DNA of 64,000 bases from Elsinoe ampelina (taxonomy: Eukaryota): positions 349,433 through 413,432 of the forward strand of contig ML992505.1 of assembly GCA_010093995.1 (NCBI GenBank), in the 5' to 3' direction. The notes beneath the pieces are model-generated. The model did no database searches and was not told the DNA's origin. It was given only the letters and a program-made list of their open reading frames with translations. The translations under genes and the position numbers were made by a program. Below, one piece after another: positions 11,158 to 47,486 of this stretch. The stretch's first letter is position 1, and each line of letters starts with the position of its first letter.

Positions 11158-12488
11158 GGCTGTATTGAGGCCTCAGGCCTCGCGACGATATTGCGGCGTA
11201 AAACCACTCCAATGTCGCGAGACTCGGGGTCAGGGTTTTGACTCGACGGTAACAAGCCCTCTGCCTATCGTCCTTGCATGAAGAAGAAGTTGAGAGGAGA
11301 AGTGTCAACGACGAAGAAGCCCGTCTGTGTCGATCAACGGATACTTGTCAGGCTGGTGAACCTGTGGCTCTTGCTGGTTCTGGAGTGCGTCGTCCCAAGG
11401 GGCGCGCGGCTAGATAGGAGGCCAGAGAGTTTGAATCGGTCTTTCGGGGGAAAAAAGGGGTGGATGACCGTTGAAGCGAAAGAATTCTGGTGGTTTAGCG
11501 AGTGACAAAGGCGTAGGCAGGTCGATGGTAGAGAATGAAAGGATAGTCGAGCAAAGGCGTCTTCACAAACCACAAGCCTGGCCGTGAGATGGAAGCAAGG
11601 GCGACAATCAGTTGGTCGAGACGGGTGATGGGCGGTCGTGTGGGAGAGACTTCTCGGGCAGGCAAGGTTGAGCCGGGAAAGCCCAAGAAAGTGTGGGTCA
11701 GTGGGTCTCAATCTCCGTGCGAGAGGCTGAAGGCGACGGCTTGCAGCTTTGGCGTCCCTGGCGTCGACACAAAGGGCAAAGCGGCCCTGCGCTAGGAGTT
11801 GATCGGGTTTGGCTCGCTCGTATTTTGGTCGACGACTTTTGTACGGGCCTGAAGACAAGCCCGGGCCGTGTTGAAGAACTGTTCTCGTACCCTCGTGCGA
11901 CGGCGTTTGGCACGAACGGAGCATGGACAGTCGAGATCGACAATCGTTGTTCGCTAACTTGCACAATAGGCAACGGACAAAGCACATATATCAAGACAGG
12001 AGATGATTCATATATCGCACCTGGTAGGATCTATTTTCTTTGTTGGTCTTACGGCCTCATCAATAGTCGTGCAGTTCATGTTTAATTAGATCCGCCAAGC
12101 CTCACCCATCAACAAAGTGCCCACAAGGCTAGTCCAGATCTGTCAACTCCGCATGTCGCTGTTTTAGCCAGACTTCTCATTCCGTACCATGTGACCGGGA
12201 TAGCTGAGCTGGCAGATGTGATGCTTTGCAGCTGCCCCTCTTTGATCGTCTCTGCTTGATCTCGAATTGTAAGGTGATGAAGTCCAGATGTGTTGCGGTG
12301 TGCAGACCTCTTCTACCATTAAATGCTTTCTCGGGTAGTAACACCTCTGAGACACTGCGAGGCTGCGTCATGCCCCTGACTCTCGAGCATCGAAGCAACT
12401 CATTCCGCAATGAGCCATGTCATATTTTGACTGGATCGAGGGCCGAACGTGCGGTCTTTGTACCTTGGATATTGGCTCCCATGATAAT

Positions 12489-13229
12489 TCATCTTCCATC
12501 CGACTGTCTTCTCGGATCCTGTGTTGGAGGCATACCTCCGGGAGGTCCACCAGGTCCACCAAATCCACCCGGGCCAGGACTAGGTCCTCCCATACCTGGC
12601 ATAGGGAAACCAGGCATACCACCTGGTGGTGGGAAAGGCATCCCGCCGGGAGGAGGGAATGGCATGCCTGCCGGTGGTGAACCTGCGGGTCCTCCTGGGA
12701 AAGGTGGCAGACCTCCGGGCTGGAAATGGGGCATACCATTGGGCATCGGGAAGGGTGGCATACCGCGACCTCCGGCTAGTGAAGAGTCAGCCTCTTGTGT
12801 ATATCTCGTGTTCGAACTCGACTTACGACCTGGTGGTCCTCCTGGAAAGCCGCCTGGTAGAGGAGGCATGCCGGGTGGGATCTGGAATCCTCCTGGTGGT
12901 CCATTCTGAAAGTATTGCGATGGCTGCATTGGCGGTGGCGCGCTTGAACCTGCTTCTGCATTTGCCTGAGTGATCGAGTCGATGACTGACTGTGCTCGTT
13001 CGTGTCCGATTTCTGTCCCTTGTCAAATTGTGCCTCCCAATTCCTCATCTTGATTTACGTACGTTGGTAGTAGTCTATGACATTGCGCAAATGATTTCGT
13101 CCAGAGTTGTGGGCCTTGCGGACAGACATTGAGTCGTGGGTGAGGTAGACATCGCAGTAGTCGCAAAAGTGTGCTGGGAGAGTCAGTAGGCGTCTGCATG
13201 GGTTCAAGGCAATACATATATTTCGGCAT
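12489..13229 (-). CDS. YHC1: U1 snRNP protein C (matrin-type zinc finger, Pro/Gly/Met tail)
   Basis: [50 protein letters not shown]; introns 13171-13219 (non-canonical AT-AC), 13013-13062, 12776-12826. Confidence 0.95.
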
Positions 13230-13818
13230 GTTGAACAACCAAATCAAGTGCGGTAAGATGACCTCTACACGGGAATGTGAAAAGATGTGGAATAGTAGTC
13301 TCGGAGGAGGTCGAAGAAATTGGCGTTGGAGCAACTCACTCGAGCTTGAAATCCATGCCGATCGCTGATTGGTTGCGGGACTGATATCCTTGGCATTCTG
13401 CACACCTCCGCCATCACCTAAGGACATTTCTTTCGTTGTCCGCCCTGACACGATTCCTGTATGCTCTCGGGATTTTCACATGTCAATTCTACAGGACATT
13501 TGTCTCGTTGAAAAATATGCTGGTAGTTTCGTGTGACCACGAGCCTCCAACTCTTGTGTGTCTGGCTCTTTCGCATTCGAGTCAAATTTCTCGTCCATGA
13601 TAATCGACCTACCATTATCGAACACAACAACCAATAAGCTGATGCTGCCTTCCACACGCACACACGACTCGCTCTACGTCCTGACCGTGTACCTGCATGT
13701 GCCAATATCACACTGAGGTAGCACAAGCCTTTACCGCCAGGGTCTCACATCCTCACAAACTTCATTTGTCCATACCTTTGTTCAATTCGAACAATCCAGC
13801 CTTTTCGGCAATCTCACC

Positions 13819-14272
13819 ATGGCGACTCACATCCCCGCCACCTCTGTCTGGCAAGCCATGTCCTATACTCCACCGCGAGGCAAGTGCAATTTCAAGTCCG
13901 GTCTCATGTCAGGTACATGTTCCTGCTTGCGTTTCATGCTGCACCCTGTCAAGGTACATTGTTTCCCTCCCTTATACAGTCCATGCACTCCTCTCGAGTA
14001 CTCACGTATTGCCTGTATCTCTGCGATTCTGACTAACCACATCTCAGGCTGCAACGTCCTTCGAGTGCGACGGCTGCTCCCACCACGCATCATTCCACCT
14101 GATGGAGAACCCGGAAGAGAATGCGATTATCGAGCGCTGGGCAAACGCCGAAGAGAACCGTGAGACAGCACTAGTGCCACTGGGCAGACGTGTGAACGTT
14201 GGTAATGCCAGTGAGGGAACCAGTGGGGGAGCAGGAACGAAGCGCAGGAGAGTGGCAAATGGGGAGTCCTGA
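13819..14272 (+). CDS. Small (119 aa) Cys/His-rich putative zinc-binding protein
   Basis: Exon 13819-13953, intron 13954-14047 (GTACAT...ACTAAC...CAG), exon 14048-14272: RGKCNFKSGLMSGTCSCLRFMLHPVK/AATSFECDGCSHHASFHLMENPEE...KRRR. Confidence 0.8.
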
Positions 14273-20630: not shown

Positions 20631-23600
20631 TCACGTCCCCGCCCCACCCGCCGTGCCCTCCTCCCTCCCACCATCCCTCTTCTCCTCCCGCCTCTCCCTT
20701 TCCCTCTCCCGCCCCTGCCCCCTCCTCCTCCTCACCGGCCTATAAACATCATTGAAATTCATCACCACCCCCAAAAACCGCATATCCGTGTCCTGCTGAT
20801 ACGCCAAATCCCCCAACAAAACATTCACCCTCGCTCTGAAATCAGTCTCCAGCTGCGCGAGCCGTCGATCAATCCCTTTCACCCCCTCCTCCTGATCCTG
20901 CCCTCCGTCGTCAGGCATAGGAATCAACGGCGCGCCATCCAACGCCTTCGACCCCGTGACTCTTGTCGAGGAACGGGACGGCGGGTCGAGGTCATCGATG
21001 CCCCACCTCCCTTGCACGGTTCGCGATGTGATGTCACGGCGATGGTCGGATGAGCGGGTGAATTCCGCGAGAGAGTGGGAGTAGAGGGCGTCGATGGTGT
21101 CTTTGTACGCCAGCATGAGTTTGAGGAGTTCGTGGAGTTGGGAGGTGAAGTCGGCGATGGGGTGGGTGGAGGTGGCGGTGGTGGGGTGAGAGGGGGCTAG
21201 GAGGCCCTTGCGCGTGATGTTGTGGAGGTAGGTGGTGTGGGCTGTGATGAGGGTGTCGAGGGTTGCGGAGGGCTGGAGGGGGGAAGTTAGTGGGTGAGGA
21301 TATAGGGGGAGAAGGGGGGTAAGGGGTACCTTGGCCATTTCGGATTTGAGCTTTTCCCAGCCGCTTTCGATCACTTCGAAGAGAATGTAGTATTGGAGTT
21401 GGCCGACGAGGTGGACCATGGCGGCTAGGCCGCCGCGGGCGCGCTTCCATGCTTCTTTGAGGTCTTGGGAGGCTTCGTCTTCGTCGTTGGGTTTCTTGTT
21501 CCGTTTGCCTTCGCCGACGAAGCGGAGAACGCCTCTGCTGCCGGTCATGCATCGGCCCCATACTTGGCCTAGGGTGAATTCGACCCGCTTGATTCTCCAT
21601 AGGAAGTTGAAGATCTTCAAATACTGCTTTTGTGCCCAAGGTCCGACGACAACATCCAAAGGTGAGTCCATGCGGTACTCGAGCGTGAAGACGTCCCATC
21701 CTATCTCGCCGTGGCTTAGCTCTAGCATTCTGGCATCAAGTCTTCTTGTGATGTCTGGCGCTTCATACTGTGCATTCGAGTTCCGGATCGAATGGTCGAG
21801 CGCTGACGTCAAATGATGGCGATACTGAGCATTTGCAGGAGCATCCAGATTAGCAGCCAGAGATTCCAGTAAGATGGCGATAAAATCTCCCTGTCCAAGT
21901 AGCAGGTACTTCTTGAGCGCGGATAAGTGGTCGAAGAGGTGGAACTTGTTAGACATGAGCTCTAATACACGAGCTGTCGTCTCCTTGTAAGCCGCGTTGA
22001 TAGATGATTGCAGTGTTGTAGGATCCGAGAATGACAGGGACCGCGATGAGCGAGCAGTGTAGGATTCAACCCACGTGGCGTCCAGACATGACGAGCGGAT
22101 GAAGTTGAGCGACTTGCCGATCAGGAACACCTGCGAGGCTTGCTCAGGCGCCATGATGGACGGGACGAGGGTGTTGTCAAGCTCATACTTGTCCGTCCAG
22201 ACTGAAGTGGGTGTCGATGTATCGATATCTGGTTTCTCCACGACGAAAAACTCCGAGAATGGGTCCTGAAGATCGCCGCTGAAGATCCAGTGTTGCAGCA
22301 TGATGTAGAAAGGCTCCGTGACTTTATGTAGCAGTCGATTTGCAAAGCTGTGTACAAATGGATCTCCGTGAGATATCGACAGGTCGTGGATCAGAGTAAT
22401 CAGATGCCCTCCTTTTTTGCCACTGGCCTCTTCGACAATGACATTCATCAGCCGTAATCCCAAGGTGGCATCTCTCGTCCAGACCACGCATCTCTTCAGG
22501 GTCACCCCTGCCTTTCCCAAGCTCTGTCTTGACATGCTTTGATCGACCTGTGCAAGCGCTTTTCGTATGTGATTCTCCAGAGTCGCTACCAGTCCGAGAT
22601 ATGATTTGAGCTCTTCACCGATCGCAGATCTCAGACTCTGCCCTACCAGTCCGCCTTCATCACCATCCACGAATCTCGCCAGCCTTCTGTACAGCAGGCC
22701 TGGCTCCGCGAGAGCATGTAGCAGACTCACCAGAGGTACTGGGAGACCTCTCGGCAGACTCAGCGTCTTTTCATCCTGAAACGGCAAGTGTGTGCTCTCC
22801 AGACCCTGCAGCGTGAAGGGTAAATCTCTCAACAGCTCTGCTTCTTTCGGTTCCGCTGGCGCCAACACCTTTGGTATGTCTTGCTCTTGACTCTCATTCG
22901 CCCTTTGTCCTCCTGGCCGCAGCGTATGCCTCTCCCTCCTCTCCCTCAGACGGGGGCTTTCTCCGCCCTCTCGTGGTATCCGTGTCGGGCCCCTCCTCGG
23001 GAACCCCTCTCTCGGCGCATCTCTTGACTCCCTACTCGACACTCTTTCCCTTAGTCTCTCCTGTTCTGCACCTCCGCGAACACCCTCCCCATCCTGCCCA
23101 CTGTCGCCTCTCACTCTTGTCCTTGTCCTTGCTGGCAGTGGAGCCGAGGCCTTCTCTAGTCCTTCCTTGACCTTGTCCACATCCATCTCTGCCAGGCGAT
23201 ATAGGAAGTACAAAATCCCCCACTTCTGACCCAGCACAGGTTGCGTCAAGAGCCTGCTGTATAAGCTCGAGAACTTGGTCGCTTTTTCCGGCCGTCCTGT
23301 ATCCCGCACTAGTTTCGCTCGTATCAGATCCGCGGCATGGGATGTGTCTTCTCGTGTCTGTTTCTCGGCGGGATCGACTTCTGTAGAAAGTGTTAGCGAC
23401 ATCGCCCTTACGCGCGCTTTCCACCCTATCGCGTGCACCCCCGCCAGCCCATGTGTCTTCGTCGCCGTCTCTACTACTCCATGGTCCGGCGCTCCTGCGT
23501 CCACCAGAGCTGTCCTCCTTGCGCCTGTCCCAAGACCCCCTGACTTCCCTCTTGCTCCTCCCAATCACAGGTTCCTCGGACAGCTCCTCCCACACTGCAC

Positions 23601-40845: not shown

Positions 40846-42942
40846 CTAAGCACTCGGGACATGAATCTCATACCCCAACAACGCCTCGTTGAAACTCCCC
40901 TCCCACCCTCTATTCCCCGCCGTGCTGATCATAAAACTACACGTCGGATCCACGTGCAACGCCGAAATCATCCCCGTCCTATGACCCGGCACGATCAAAA
41001 ACGGCACGGCAGAGTGCTTGCTCGGGTTCTGGTCCGCCTTGAGATCATACAGTCTCAGGATATCGTAACTCGCACTGTTTGACCCGTCAGCTTTCATCTC
41101 CCCAGCCCCCACAATCCACCAGTCCAAAAGAGCCTTGAAAAAAAAGGAATCAACATACCACACGAGTCCCCTCCCATTCGGCATCCCCCTCACAGCACTC
41201 ACCGCCCCGCTCCCGGCCGGGAACCTCAACGTCCGAGTCGGCTCCCCCATCCTCCCCCCGCGGTGCACAGAGTACTCGTCCACCGTCCCGTTCCGCCTCC
41301 CCGCGTAGAAAAAATTGCCGTCCGGCGACCAGCATGCCCCCATGCACCACGGGGGCGTGCCGCGTTGCGGGTGGATGGTTGCGATCGGGAGCGGGGCGCG
41401 GCGGTCCCACAGGCGTAAAGCCCCGTCGATGGCAGAGTCGAGGAAGGTGGATTCCTGCGAGGCGGCCGGGGTGGAGGTGGAGGCGGGGAGGGAGGTGGTG
41501 AGGGGGGCGTCGTGGGTGGGGTTGCTGGAGGTGTGGCCGTTTGTGAGGGGTTCAGTGGGGATGGATAGGTCGGGGACCGGGGCAGAGGGGTCTTTTTCGA
41601 CAGGGGGTGGGGGGTTCGGTGGTGCTTCGGCAGTGGACTCGGGCATGGCGGGTTCGCTGGTGACGTTCCCTGAGGCCTCTTCTGCGTCATGCTGGGAGAG
41701 GCCGTTGGCGAGTGCTTTGCTAAAGTCGTCGTCGTCGTCGTCGAAGCCGCCTCCGCCTCCACCTCCTCCGCCCTCGTCGTTGTCTCCGAACAGACTGCCG
41801 TGATCGTTCTCTCCGAATAGACTACCATCTGGTGAGCCGATCGCGTCTTCCTCTTTTCCCTCGCCCTTGACCGATCCTCCGTTGGTGAAGCCATTGGTCG
41901 TCACCGGTTTGTCGTTGTTCGTCCCGAATGTGTCGCTCGCTTCCCGCTCCGTCTCGACATCCAACGTTGGCACCGCCACTCCACTGGGCGGTCTTATTTC
42001 GATCGCTGAGATTTGTCCACCATTTCCTGGAAACGTTCGCTTGACCCGGCCAGTATTGAGATCCCAGTCCAGGATCCTCTTATCCCAACTTCCAGACAGG
42101 CAGCTCGTCTCATCTATACTCAGCTTCAACACACTGACCGCACTCGTATGCTCCCTCAATGTGGCTATTCGTGTCCCCGCTTGATGCCGACAAGTCTGTA
42201 GATTGATCGCCCCGCTCTCTAGACCGCTCAGCAACCACAGCGCCTGATGTTGTACAGCCAAAGAATAAACCGGTGATGTCTCCTTACTCTCATCTCCTGC
42301 TTGCGCCGGCGGTGTTCGTGAAGACGGCGCCACTTCTTCATTCTCCCAGTATGTTGTCAAAGATCCAGCCTTCATAACGCTGTCCACGAATGGATGCTTT
42401 TGTGCTACTGTCAAGGGCACTTTCCCATTGGCTGTTTCCACCCAGTTGTACATCCTTACGTAGCCATCTCCGCCTCCCGAGAAGACCCAGCGCATGTCCG
42501 GTGTGGCTGTCAGAGCGTTGATGCTGGTCCCTTGCGGTGCGGCCATGGTCGGAACAATATCGTATGTGAGCGCTGTAAGGGCTTCAGGACGTGGAGGCGG
42601 TATATAGTATGCTGCGCCGGTGTGCGGACCGCGAGAGGAGGCGGGGCGAGGAGACGGACTGGTGAGAAGGACAGTGGGGTTTTGGTTCGAAGGCGAGGGT
42701 CGAGAGCCGCGGCGTGGATTAGTTGGCGAGTCGGGGTCTCCTGGCTCGTCGTCGTCTTCGTCGTCCTCGTTCGCGTCGGGATCGTCGTCGCCGTCCGCAT
42801 CGTCTTGGGCATCGTCATCTACCATAGTCGCATCGGCTTCGTTGTCGTCGTCGTCTCCGTCCGCGTCGGCCATGGTCTCGTCTTCATCTTGCGATTCGGA
42901 CGAGTTGTTGGCTTGATCATCGTCGTCTTCGAAGGAGACCAT
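40846..42942 (-). CDS. SPT8: SAGA complex WD40 subunit Spt8
   Basis: Acidic N-terminus, YDIVPTMAAPQ, CLSGSWDK, PPWCMGACWSPDG, YAGRRNGTV, VPFLIVPGH, STAGNRGWEG; intron 41075-41158. Confidence 0.93.
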   Translation of the reverse strand: MVSFEDDDDQANNSSESQDEDETMADADGDDDDNEADATMVDDDAQDDADGDDDPDANEDDEDDDEPGDPDSPTNPRRGSRPSPSNQNPTVLLTSPSPRPASSRGPHTGAAYYIPPPRPEALTALTYDIVPTMAAPQGTSINALTATPDMRWVFSGGGDGYVRMYNWVETANGKVPLTVAQKHPFVDSVMKAGSLTTYWENEEVAPSSRTPPAQAGDESKETSPVYSLAVQHQALWLLSGLESGAINLQTCRHQAGTRIATLREHTSAVSVLKLSIDETSCLSGSWDKRILDWDLNTGRVKRTFPGNGGQISAIEIRPPSGVAVPTLDVETEREASDTFGTNNDKPVTTNGFTNGGSVKGEGKEEDAIGSPDGSLFGENDHGSLFGDNDEGGGGGGGGGFDDDDDDFSKALANGLSQHDAEEASGNVTSEPAMPESTAEAPPNPPPPVEKDPSAPVPDLSIPTEPLTNGHTSSNPTHDAPLTTSLPASTSTPAASQESTFLDSAIDGALRLWDRRAPLPIATIHPQRGTPPWCMGACWSPDGNFFYAGRRNGTVDEYSVHRGGRMGEPTRTLRFPAGSGAVSAVRGMPNGRGLVWYVDSFFFKALLDWWIVGAGEMKADGSNSASYDILRLYDLKADQNPSKHSAVPFLIVPGHRTGMISALHVDPTCSFMISTAGNRGWEGSFNEALLGYEIHVPSA

Positions 42943-43476
42943 TTTGCTGGATTAGGAGATTGCGGACAGGCGTCGAATGGTCACATAGTCGCCCAGAAGA
43001 CTAGTGATGTCGATTCGTCGCAGTAAACCCTATGCAGAGGGAGCAATTGGTGGCCGGAATAATATCGACTTGCTTGTCGAGGTCGAGATCGGGATTAGCT
43101 CATGCTCGTGATCGACCGGTCCGAGGAACCGCAGAGCCGCACATGTTACAACATGGAGAATCTCACGCCGTCCTGCTTTACGCTCTCCCGTCCCAACCAA
43201 CCATTTCTGTCTTTGTTGATAGGCTGACTACAAAGTCGTCTTTGGCTTGTTCGTGAACATTGGCATCTGCGCAAAGTCGCTACAAAGAGTTAAGTGCGTA
43301 CTGATGCTAAAGTAACTCTCTCTCCGGGGCCTCTTGGGTCCACTGTTCCGCCACATGCAAGTAGCCGGTCATGACATCGATGCAAACACTGCGATCTCGC
43401 GGATTTGAAGCAGATGGCCCACAGTCTCTTGAAAGCATTGCTCTCGCTAGATCAAGCTGTGAAAGGATGCACATAA

Positions 43477-44721: not shown

Positions 44722-47486
44722 CTAATCCTCAGTCAAATCACCATACTCCCACATCCCTCTCCTCTCACTCTTCGCTTCCTCCTCCCTCTTCCTCAACCCA
44801 GCCAACACATCCGTCGCGCCCCTCTCCCACGCCTTCAACTTCCTCGGCACCATCGCCAATCCCTCCCCAACCACCTCCGCATTGACGCTCTGATCCGCCT
44901 TATCGCTCTTCTTAGGATCGAACAGCGTCACGTACAGCGTGCCCTCCTTGGAGTCGATAAAGTCCACGTTGGCAACCAGCTGCCTCCCCGCCGTTGTCTC
45001 CTCAATCATGTATGTGGCTTCTTGGAGGTACTCTTTGCTGCCGGAGAATTGGACGAAGGAGAGTACGGCATCAACAGCTTGGGGCTTGAGCTTCTGCACG
45101 CCGAAGCGGCCTTGGTCTAAGGGGCGAAGGCGGGTCCACGGGATGATCTCGCTATTACCGTAGTCAACGTAGACGACTTCGCTGGTCTTGGCGTCTCGGT
45201 CGTTGCGGCGGACGCGGGCGCGGTACCAGGTGTCGTCGGCGGTGAACTTGGCGGAGACGTAGTCGCCTGCTTTTGGTGGACCGTCGAGGCCGCCGGAAGA
45301 GGAAATGTGGAAGGAGCGGAAGGAGTTCATGAGCTCGCTGAGGGCGGATGTGCCGGTGCCGACTTGCTGGATCTTGAGCTTGGCCGTTTCTGGGTCGATG
45401 TGAGTGATCATCACGTCGCGGTAGTCCTTCCTGCGTTCTACCGGAGCAGATGAGTCTCCGTTCGTCCCATTTGTGCCGTTTGTGCCGTTTGTGTAGCCAT
45501 CTTCGCCGTTGGCCTCGGCGTCCTGTGATGGGTCCCAGTCTTGCCAGAGGTTCTTGCGACCTTCCTTAGCCTTTGACTCCGCAGCGAAGAGCTCGTTGGC
45601 GTTTCCAGACTTTTCTGCCGAGTATGCGTGAACAGATGCCAGACCCTCTTCGACAAGTGACTTGGCAAACGACTCGCGGTTGACGTATAGGGTACCAATG
45701 AATCCGCCCACCTTGTCGACATTCTCAACATCAATTTCGACATCACGTTGCAAAGCCCTTCGATTCGCAAAGTCGTGAGCCTCTTGGCCAAATGGCTCGC
45801 CTTTATCAGCGGGATTGCGAGCTGACTTTGGACACGAGATACCAGACAGGACGAAGGTGAGCTTTGCGTTCTCCCGAGGTACCAGTAGTGTGAAGCGGCT
45901 TCCAGATTTGACGAAGTCCACAATAGCAGGAACACGACGTTGGCGAGAAAAGAGAGTCATCTGTCGCTTGGCCTGGTCCAGAGAAGCGCTGTAGTCCACA
46001 TATTCGACCTTCTTTGGCGGCTTAGGATTCCACATACCCTTACCTTCTGTTTTGGCAGCCTCTTCTGCGGCAAGCAGCTCATCGTAAATGGGCGATCGAT
46101 CAGTATCGTCCATTCTATGCCTGATGACCGATGCGTATCCCTCCTCGACTAGAAGCAGTCCGACATTTTTACCCGATTGAGTGACGGTCGCCATTTCTCG
46201 CTCATCATAACCTTCGGTGGCGGGCCGCTTACCGTCGATGACAACCTTTACAGTCTTGCCAATGAGTCGCTTGCGGAGAAATTCCTTGGCCTCGGGTACA
46301 AAAGGTGCTTGTGCAGGATCTGTAGGCTTCGGCTGTCTGACGCTGCTGAGGTTGACGCGCTTGTCCAGTCCAGCCCGGTTGCGGAGGAAGAGAGTATCGG
46401 CTGAAAAGACACGACTGACAGTTGCTTCGATCTCACCTTTGGCTCCACCGCTGTTTGACGCCACTGCGTGGAACAGCCCCTTACGATTGTCCCTCGCTTG
46501 ACGTTCAGCTTGACGAAGCTTGCCCATGTCAGATCCGAGCATTGTCGAGTGGTGGTCAACGCAACGAGCCAGACCATCGCGAAGGATATGCTCTGCGATG
46601 CTGCCTTGCACCGGATGTCGCACATCACCTATAAGCTGTCCGTTTGGTGATACTCCCAAGAGTTTGATCTCTACACCTCGTTGATGGAGACGAGACTCGA
46701 TGAATGCAAGCGCCTCTTGTCCGTATGGCTCAGCTGGTTGTTCAGTGTTGTCTGCAGCATTGACGCGCTTCGTTGCAGGGGCTCTGATACCAGCTATGAG
46801 GATGAGAGTCTGCAGGTGCTTGTTTGGCTCGAGGAGTAGTCGACATATGACGCGGTCTCCAGTGATGACTCGCTCGATGATAGCTGATCAATTGTCAGCT
46901 TTGTGATATCTCCGGACCGTAGCTCTTACCGTCTATGGTCTTGCCCTTGTGCTCTTCCACGAGTGACTTTGGGTTTGCGACCTCTTGTATGCTCTCGATG
47001 CGGGAGAGGGATGGACTCCACAAGCCCTTCGAGTCTGTTTTTGCTCTTGCCTCGAGAGCTTGCAGCTTCTCTAGCAGTTCAATGCCCTGTGGGGAGTCCT
47101 CCTTCTTCCCAGCATCATCTCTCAGCTTGACCCAGCCCTCGCCGACCAGAACATCAGGCAGTTGCTGACCACTCTGAAGCTGGACGATACCATAGTCTCG
47201 AGAAGCAGACCCGGGAATGTTGTACAAAACGCTGAATCGGACTACCTTGCCGAGGACTAGCTTGCGTAGGAAATCGCGGGACTCGAAGGCACCTTGCTGT
47301 GGGATATGTCAGATCCTGCTCTTGACGTGTGGGAACGTGACTGACCTCGTCGCCTTCTCTTCTTAACCTCGGTGCGGTGACGAATGCCAGGCTAAGAGTT
47401 CGCTCCTGTGCTGGATTGCGGACGTTGTGTAAGATCAAAGTGTCCCCTGAAAGGACAGCTTTGACCTTTGCTTCCATGAGAGACAT
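44722..47486 (-). CDS. SND1: Tudor staphylococcal nuclease (Tudor-SN/p100)
   Basis: KVKAVLSGDTLIL; repeated SN modules (EAKEFLRKRLIGK, EPFGQEAHDF...LQRDVEI); Tudor AKFTADDTWYRARV...YVDYGNSE; C-terminal RGMWEYGDLTED; two introns. Confidence 0.96.

Follow-up and report, generated by a model that had tools for sequence, protein, structure and literature searches.

The stretch of DNA analysed here (the window) comprises 64,000 nucleotides (nt) of contig ML992505.1 of Elsinoe ampelina (positions 349,433–413,432 of the forward strand; assembly GCA_010093995.1) and contains, on its minus strand, a gene for the splicing factor U1-C whose first intron begins with AT and ends with AC. The start codon (13229–13227) is followed by CCG AAA T and then, from position 13219, by ATATGTATTG. 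Intron 1 (13219–13171, 49 nt) reads ATATGT...CCCAGCAC and is followed by AC TTT TGC GAC TAC TGC. The 37-residue translation of 13171–13059 on the minus strand matches the Pfam family zf-U1 (PF06220) with a score of 69.5 bits (cut-off 22) and an E value of 2e-19, the match on exon 2 spanning profile positions 5–38 of 38. The spliced model has 591 nt and encodes 196 residues with the N-terminus MPKYFCDYC, and its zinc ligands C6, C9, H24 and H30, numbered as in human U1C, are in register (C-x2-C ... H-x5-H directly after MPK(Y/F)(F/Y)). A HMMER scan with exon 2 yielded 992 relatives at E ≤ 1e-3; the best 150 were examined. Many of these are open reading frames with a translated intron, and 63 of the 150 carry a start of the form M[PG][KR][FYH][FY]C[DE]YC.

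Four splicing options for intron 1 were compared by script for the resulting reading frame. Removal of 13219–13171 (AT..AC) gives MPKYFCDYC and the open 196-residue frame, and removal of 13219–13174 (AT..AG) remains in frame and gives MPKSHFC and 197 residues. Both the removal of 42 nt from the GT at 13215 to the AG at 13174 and the retention of the intron shift the frame. The conserved U1-C N-terminus with its zinc ligands in register is obtained from the AT..AC model alone.

The contigs of four sequencing runs (X1, X2, X9 and X6) were aligned to window positions 12300–13700. One contig each in X1, X2 and X9, which belong to three studies, skips the 49 nt of intron 1 (13169→13219) with no mismatches, and the same contigs also skip 12776–12826 (51 nt) and 13013–13062 (50 nt), both GT..AG on the gene strand. 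The three exactly removed introns, together with an adapter-like loose end at 13295 in X1, identify these contigs as transcripts. X6, from a relative (organism B), covers intron 2 and the start of exon 2 and ends short of intron 1; uncovered parts were not counted. On the plus strand the joint at intron 1 reads TG..TA; its position is free by one base and corresponds on the gene strand either to AT..AC (13219–13171) or to TA..CA (13218–13170). Three of the related loci described below (L028, L029 and L080) resolve the ambiguity in favour of AT..AC: their introns start with a base other than the one that follows the intron, and the frame is kept by AT..AC only. The contigs run unbroken from 13219 to 13287 (X2 and X9) or 13295 (X1) with no further joint upstream, and a scan of the transcribed leader (13295–13230, minus strand) found no ATG, so that no upstream exon supplies the N-terminus. 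Neither the 42-nt skip nor retention of intron 1 was found among the contigs of X1, X2 and X9, which as contigs lose rare variants. Identical spliced U1-C contigs occur under two species labels, organism A (X1 and X2) and organism C (X9); very large single-cell RNA runs also exist for organism C, and the fungus may occur in samples labelled as another organism.

A preliminary description of this locus, made from the sequence alone, had stated that U1-C needs an AT-AC first intron, that the 49-nt removal yields MPKYFCDYC, that the GT-AG splice and retention cause frameshifts and that an AT-AG splice adds one residue. Its base-level account of the intron is correct throughout on re-reading of the sequence, the scripted models agree with it, and the need for the AT-AC intron is borne out by the contigs of three studies and by the covariation of the intron ends in relatives (see below). 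It had also named an upstream exon supplying the N-terminus as a finding that would overturn its claim; the unbroken, ATG-less leader argues the opposite. That the AT-AC termini reflect an assembly error (a true G at 13219) or a decaying gene or pseudogene is extremely improbable, even though the window donor is one G>A change away from a perfect GTATGT. A G at +1 with GT..AG splicing would give AAAT-CACAC, and the contigs of the three studies read AAAT-AC-TTT; the same A...C pairing is found in four independent metagenome assemblies, and the spliced frame is intact over its 196 residues, with a contig depth of up to 295.

The same intron was then compared across relatives. A protein search with a 43-residue reference from the window gave two matches only, both of them mis-predicted frames. 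A scan of metagenome contigs with an 11-protein alignment gave 474 matched stretches and 227 relatives, of which the best 80 were kept, all of them close relatives. No intron lies between the start codon and the Cys-6 codon in 45 of the 80 loci, some of which are clearly spliced transcript contigs; L018 and L020, for example, have no intron, but their protein is identical to that of L030, which has one. Among the protein relatives, P0029 (Friedmanniomyces endolithicus) is likewise of the intron-less type. The remaining 35 loci have an intron exactly after ATGCCNAAR-T, with GT-AG ends in 28, GC-AG ends in three (L001, L009 and L014, with donors GCAAGC, GCACGT and GCAAGA), AT-AC ends in four (L028, L029, L061 and L080) and mixed ends in none. 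This position thus shows all three known end pairs of the major spliceosome, and the ends covary perfectly over the 36 orthologous introns (35 loci and the window). Distinct sequences number 33 with the window included (25 GT-AG, three GC-AG and five AT-AC), for which the covariation has a Fisher p of 4e-6, kinship being ignored. A similar picture emerges from open reading frames that read through the intron among the 150 best proteins, where intron signatures were deduced from codons rather than from DNA: AT and/or AC signatures are present in 26 and GT/GC/AG signatures in 15, with both kinds in none, and AT and AC occur together in ten, as do G[TC] and AG. To judge from these comparisons, the AT-AC intron of the window is one case of a state that is common at U1-C intron 1.

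The five AT-AC introns share a uniform anatomy. Their donors are ATAAGT in the four relatives and ATATGT in the window, and all five contain the U2-type branch motif ACTGAC (as TACTGAC, GACTGAC or CACTGAC). They are 49–53 nt long, compared with 50–151 nt for the 28 distinct GT/GC-AG introns (Mann–Whitney p = 0.001), and the distance from the branch A to the last intron base is 11–12 nt in all five, compared with 12–30 nt in the others (p = 0.0015, or p = 0.0006 without L005, the branch of which is probably mis-called). The motif CTGAC is present in five of five AT-AC introns and in ten of the 28 GT/GC-AG introns (p = 0.013). In four of the five, no other AC intervenes between the branch motif and the AC that is used; L029 has an earlier AAC, which may be the one used and would insert one in-frame residue. 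We read the short length, the perfect branch motif and the fixed 11–12 nt spacing as making up for the missing AG or as a distance measure for the 3' splice site. By its donor and branch motifs intron 1 of U1-C is classed as U2-type, as the preliminary description had read it (a fungal GTATGT with G>A at +1 and a TACTGAC branch), and the relatives agree. The recurrence of AT...AC in four of the 35 intron-bearing loci also answers that description's question of whether relatives would all be GT-AG here, and shows that its implied single G>A change underestimated the scale, the AT-AC state being common to several divergent lineages.

Excision of intron 1 by the minor (U12-type) spliceosome would account for the AT-AC termini and for a window donor that starts with ATAT, and is nevertheless highly improbable. 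Positions +5 to +8 of the window donor are GTAT, not CCTT, and the relatives have ATAAGT; excerpts from PMC5029451 name /ATAAGT as the strong consensus for AT-AC introns of the major spliceosome, as against /ATATCCTT for U12-type introns. There is no TCCTTAAC-like branch motif, its place being taken by ACTGAC, and the U12-type signals (a /RTATCCTT donor and a TCCTTAAC branch 10–15 nt from the 3' end) are absent from the window intron and the four related AT-AC introns alike. According to passages of PMC2846911 and PMC11347168, neither U12-type introns nor minor small nuclear RNAs (snRNAs) are reported in Ascomycota, a clade reported to lack the U12 machinery. A search of the 64-kb window with Rfam gave no matches and hence no snRNA, over a span too small to say much.

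We therefore conclude that in this filamentous ascomycete the AT-AC intron 1 of U1-C is very probably excised constitutively and by the major (U2-type) spliceosome. It occupies a position that is common to many Pezizomycotina, where the intron is usually GT-AG or GC-AG and where a first base A always goes with a last base C. From established knowledge of splicing, U1 and U6 would read the donor A-TATGT or A-TAAGT, which is otherwise of consensus sequence, and U2 would read the ACTGAC branch site. Passages of a yeast review (PMC11585973) describe a pairing of an intron's first base with its last (G-G) during exon ligation, for which A-C can substitute. In the second step, a non-Watson–Crick pair between A(+1) and C(-1) would take the place of the usual G-G pair, and through this replacement the AG at 13175–13174 would be bypassed and the first AC about 12 nt beyond the branch A used. 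The AT-AC state has probably been held because reversion to GT-AG takes two changes, each of which is harmful alone.

Several points weigh against this conclusion. The covariation counts are non-independent, as the window and L061 are sisters and the AT-AC members with a micro-exon (see below) may share one origin, and the pattern of spacing and length could stem from shared ancestry rather than constraint. The use of U1, U2, U4 and U6 and the lack of a minor spliceosome in the host rest on motifs and on the Ascomycota literature. The label of the sequencing runs is 'RNA? (a guess)', and it is from the three precisely removed introns and the adapter-like end that they are taken to be RNA. AT..AC and TA..CA yield the identical message AAA TAC TTT, so that the RNA joint by itself is ambiguous by one base, and the A at 13219 is that of the assembly sequence. 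Finally, minor isoforms are compatible with the contig data, and 'constitutive' is to that extent not proven.

The preliminary description had gone further and proposed that the intron encloses a GT-AG decoy, the level or activity of U1-C deciding whether the productive AT donor is used or, 4 nt further on, an unproductive GT donor (spliced to the AG at 13174), in a loop that would act on its own mRNA. In favour of such a feedback, U1-C is the one component of U1 known to stabilise its binding to weak 5' splice sites (passages of PMC11585973), and the GT..AG product is frameshifted. Moreover, AT-AC introns amount to about 0.03% of fungal introns in excerpts from PMC4084796, compared with five of the 33 distinct U1-C intron 1 sequences, and AT-AC signatures are found in about a sixth of the 150 protein representatives, a coincidence with a 5'-splice-site factor that we find striking. 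We nevertheless regard the feedback as unlikely. The decoy GT (13215–13214) is the +5/+6 dinucleotide of the consensus donor, and since every GTAAGT or GTATGT donor carries GT there it does not stand out as a feature of its own; read as a donor itself it gives GTATTG, which is poor. The window, L061 and L080 have an AG 3 nt ahead of the AC (YAGCAC), but no AG follows the branch in L028 and L029. The decoy, present with its AG in three of the five AT-AC introns only, is thus by sequence comparison not a conserved element, and this part of the description is unsupported. Beyond their splice signals the AT-AC introns share nothing, with 29–37 identical columns of 51–56 in pairwise alignments, and the intron 1 region folds no better than shuffled sequence (z = 0.51). 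The lack of decoy and retained forms in the contigs of X1, X2 and X9 also speaks against the feedback, although weakly, as contigs drop rare forms. If U1-C aids the weak AT donor the loop would in addition be positive, not homeostatic. Lastly, AT-AC ends are generally well conserved once present (according to passages of PMC7072748), and as reversion needs two changes their persistence needs no regulatory role.

The origin of the AT-AC state was approached with a U1-C tree of 33 rows and 74 columns, from which four of the 81 sequences were left out (fewer than 40 residues of exon 3: L017, L026, L040 and L069) and in which identical rows were merged. Of its 28 inner branches 16 are unsupported, and the tree does not decide between one and several AT-AC origins; intron-less rows mask the ancestral state, so that the 'changes' counted on the tree should not be equated with conversions. 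The window has L061 as its sister (support 100/96) inside an intron-less, MPKYF-type group that shares the upstream neighbour gene, and L028, L029 and L080 belong to the other main group, which also contains GT-AG and GC-AG versions. Three gene architectures harbour the AT-AC intron: one has a 6-nt micro-exon and an additional GT-AG intron (L028 and L080), one lacks the micro-exon (window and L061) and one lacks intron 2 (L029).

The micro-exon (TCTTCT, TCTTTT or TTTTTT) is found in the U1-C genes of L028, L077, L078, L079 and L080. Its six bases complete codon 4, form codon 5 and supply the Cys-6 codon with its first base. It is flanked by intron 1 and an extra phase-1 GT-AG intron, in a stretch about 60–180 nt upstream of the DYCDV codons; its footprint, the translated motif [HY]SSVG, is present in 12 of the 150 protein representatives. 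The donor of the next intron is GTAGG in the AT-AC members of this group, compared with GTAAGC in the GT-AG members (L077–L079), and the shared GTAGG suggests one old AT-AC lineage within the group. L029 is a 1045-nt contig with a 30-nt leader and the intron at about 41–90; past the zinc finger it has an uninterrupted frame of 183 residues, and it contains no further intron. It is transcript-like and yet has the AT-AC intron, and may be either an intron-retaining mRNA or a genomic copy of a single-intron gene.

The AT-AC intron could be a fossil of an ancestral U12-type AT-AC intron, adopted by the major spliceosome at the loss of the minor one from the fungal lineage and later changed to GT-AG or GC-AG in some lineages. 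This concerns the origin and is compatible with the mechanism preferred above for the present intron. AT-AC occurs to either side of the tree's best-supported split and in three architectures, which fits an old state, and early-diverging fungi retain parts of the minor spliceosome (passages of PMC11347168). Against it, no U12 motif remains in any of the five AT-AC introns, the 80 loci compared are all close relatives with none from fungi that have a minor spliceosome, and the forks of the 74-column tree are mostly unsupported; we hold such an origin to be improbable. A broader reading, that the AT-AC state is no frozen accident and is kept by selection in many Pezizomycotina, where it would couple U1-C output to the recognition of mismatched 5' splice sites as a gauge of U1 snRNP (small nuclear ribonucleoprotein) function, and/or that it is the last vestige of a U12-type intron that passed to the major spliceosome once the minor one had disappeared, is doubtful, if slightly less so. 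If either half of it were true, one orthologous intron would provide a natural series of GT-AG, GC-AG and AT-AC versions for studying how the major spliceosome pairs the ends and measures the 3' site from the branch.

The coordinates of the U1-C gene and of the signals of intron 1 are collected in Table 1. Upstream lies a divergent neighbour gene on the plus strand (13449–14269), for which transcript contigs in X1 and X2 begin near 13449–13457; its open reading frames at 13717–14160 and 14033–14269 have no Pfam match. This neighbour (13717–14269) adjoins U1-C in 14 metagenome loci, all of them intron-less or of the MPKYF type; it is the only shared neighbour found and gives no guide to the age of the intron. 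Housekeeping genes on the minus strand of the window encode a gamma-tubulin complex component (20634–23564), an SPT8-like WD40 protein (40849–42951) and a Tudor-SN nuclease (44725–46887).

Table 1. Features of the U1-C locus, in window coordinates; all lie on the minus strand.
Feature	Position	Strand	Evidence
5' untranslated region (UTR) to contig limit, without ATG	13230..13295	-	Contig ends at 13295 (X1, adapter-like loose letters beyond) and 13287 (X2, X9)
U1-C coding region, 4 exons, 196 residues, stop codon 12491–12489	12489..13229	-	Pfam zf-U1; transcript contigs; spliced model
Coding exon 1, ATG CCG AAA T, codon 4 split in phase 1	13220..13229	-	Sequence; transcript contigs; spliced model
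Intron 1, 49 nt, AT-AC termini, U2-type signals	13171..13219	-	Contigs X1, X2, X9; orthologous AT-AC introns L028, L029, L061, L080
5' splice site ATATGT (GTATGT with A at +1)	13214..13219	-	Sequence; donors of relatives (ATAAGT, four)
Branch-site motif TACTGAC; branch A at 13183, 12 nt ahead of last intron base	13182..13188	-	Sequence
Unused AG (end of CCCAG), 3 nt upstream of the 3' splice site used	13174..13175	-	Sequence; transcript contigs
3' splice site AC (end of CAC), first AC past the branch motif	13171..13172	-	Transcript contigs; sequence
Exon 2, zf-U1 zinc finger	13063..13170	-	Pfam; transcript contigs
Intron 2, 50 nt, GT-AG (GTACGT...ACAG)	13013..13062	-	Transcript contigs
Exon 3	12827..13012	-	Transcript contigs
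Intron 3, 51 nt, GT-AG (GTAAGT...CTAG)	12776..12826	-	Transcript contigs; CT..AC on plus strand
Exon 4, coding part, Pro/Gly/Met-rich tail and stop	12489..12775	-	Contigs run on as 3' UTR beyond 12300

Public gene calls for fungal U1-C are often wrong at the N-terminus (P0002, P0003, P0058, P0117 and many of P0004–P0153). The faulty models comprise frame-shifted readings of exon 2, models with MPKCDYC that skip the micro-exon and in-frame read-through of the intron, and are consistent with predictors that do not allow AT-AC ends or 6-nt exons. As gene finders limited to GT/GC-AG mis-predict U1-C, its N-termini are probably wrong in many fungal genomes.

AT-AC introns of the major spliceosome are very rare (the figure of about 0.03% quoted above from excerpts of PMC4084796) and are mostly known from animals or from an engineered yeast pair; in U1-C, such an intron is the only productive splice in an essential splicing-factor gene. 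The natural covariation of GT-AG, GC-AG and AT-AC at one position supports, in species that presumably lack a minor spliceosome, an interaction between the two terminal bases of an intron, and the uniform branch-to-3' spacing suggests how a 3' site is picked without AG. The location in U1-C makes intron 1 an obvious reporter for the feedback idea. Non-canonical splice sites in Fusarium graminearum genes have been tabulated, with one AT-AC intron among them, in a gene that may or may not be U1-C (PMC3577648). In the full-text literature searched, no paper was found that links AT-AC to a fungal U1-C gene. Introns of this kind are known; that literature appears to contain no description of the present one, of its recurrence at one orthologous site or of the anatomy that the AT-AC versions share.

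Autoregulatory unproductive splicing is known among splicing factors, with RPL30 of yeast and the cross-regulated human U1-70K and U1C as examples. Intron 1 of U1-C resembles these systems in that a gene of the splicing machinery has an unusual splice signal in its own transcript, and differs from them in that its contigs, which lose rare variants, show no unproductive isoform and that neither a conserved decoy nor a protein-binding element came to light. With U12-type AT-AC introns (/ATATCCTT donor, TCCTTAAC branch) it shares only the terminal dinucleotides, as both its donor and its branch differ. Another parallel is the nested AT-AC intron of RPL30 in Saccharomyces cerevisiae, which excerpts of the original report describe as a 1–2% side product with an atypical donor whose use destroys the reading frame (Gould et al., 2016; PMC5029451). 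Both are endogenous AT-AC splices in an ascomycete that lacks, or in the present case presumably lacks, a minor spliceosome, but the AT-AC splice of U1-C is the only productive one, is the only form in the contigs and uses a consensus donor. The closest match is with the U2-type ('type II') AT-AC introns, of which a few dozen metazoan cases with the consensus /ATAAGT are known (Sheth et al., 2006; PMC1557818, also as quoted in PMC5029451), and with the engineered A1/C-1 pair of yeast (Parker & Siliciano, 1993, as cited in a passage of PMC11585973). U1-C intron 1 has their termini, their U2-type donor and branch and their covariation of first and last bases. It is unlike the known cases in lying in a filamentous fungus and in the U1-C gene itself, in occupying a position that is also GT-AG or GC-AG, and in its length of 49–53 nt and fixed 11–12 nt spacing, its class being assigned by motifs. 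The AT-AC splice of U1-C is, in this company, not a new mechanism but a clean natural example with testable rules.
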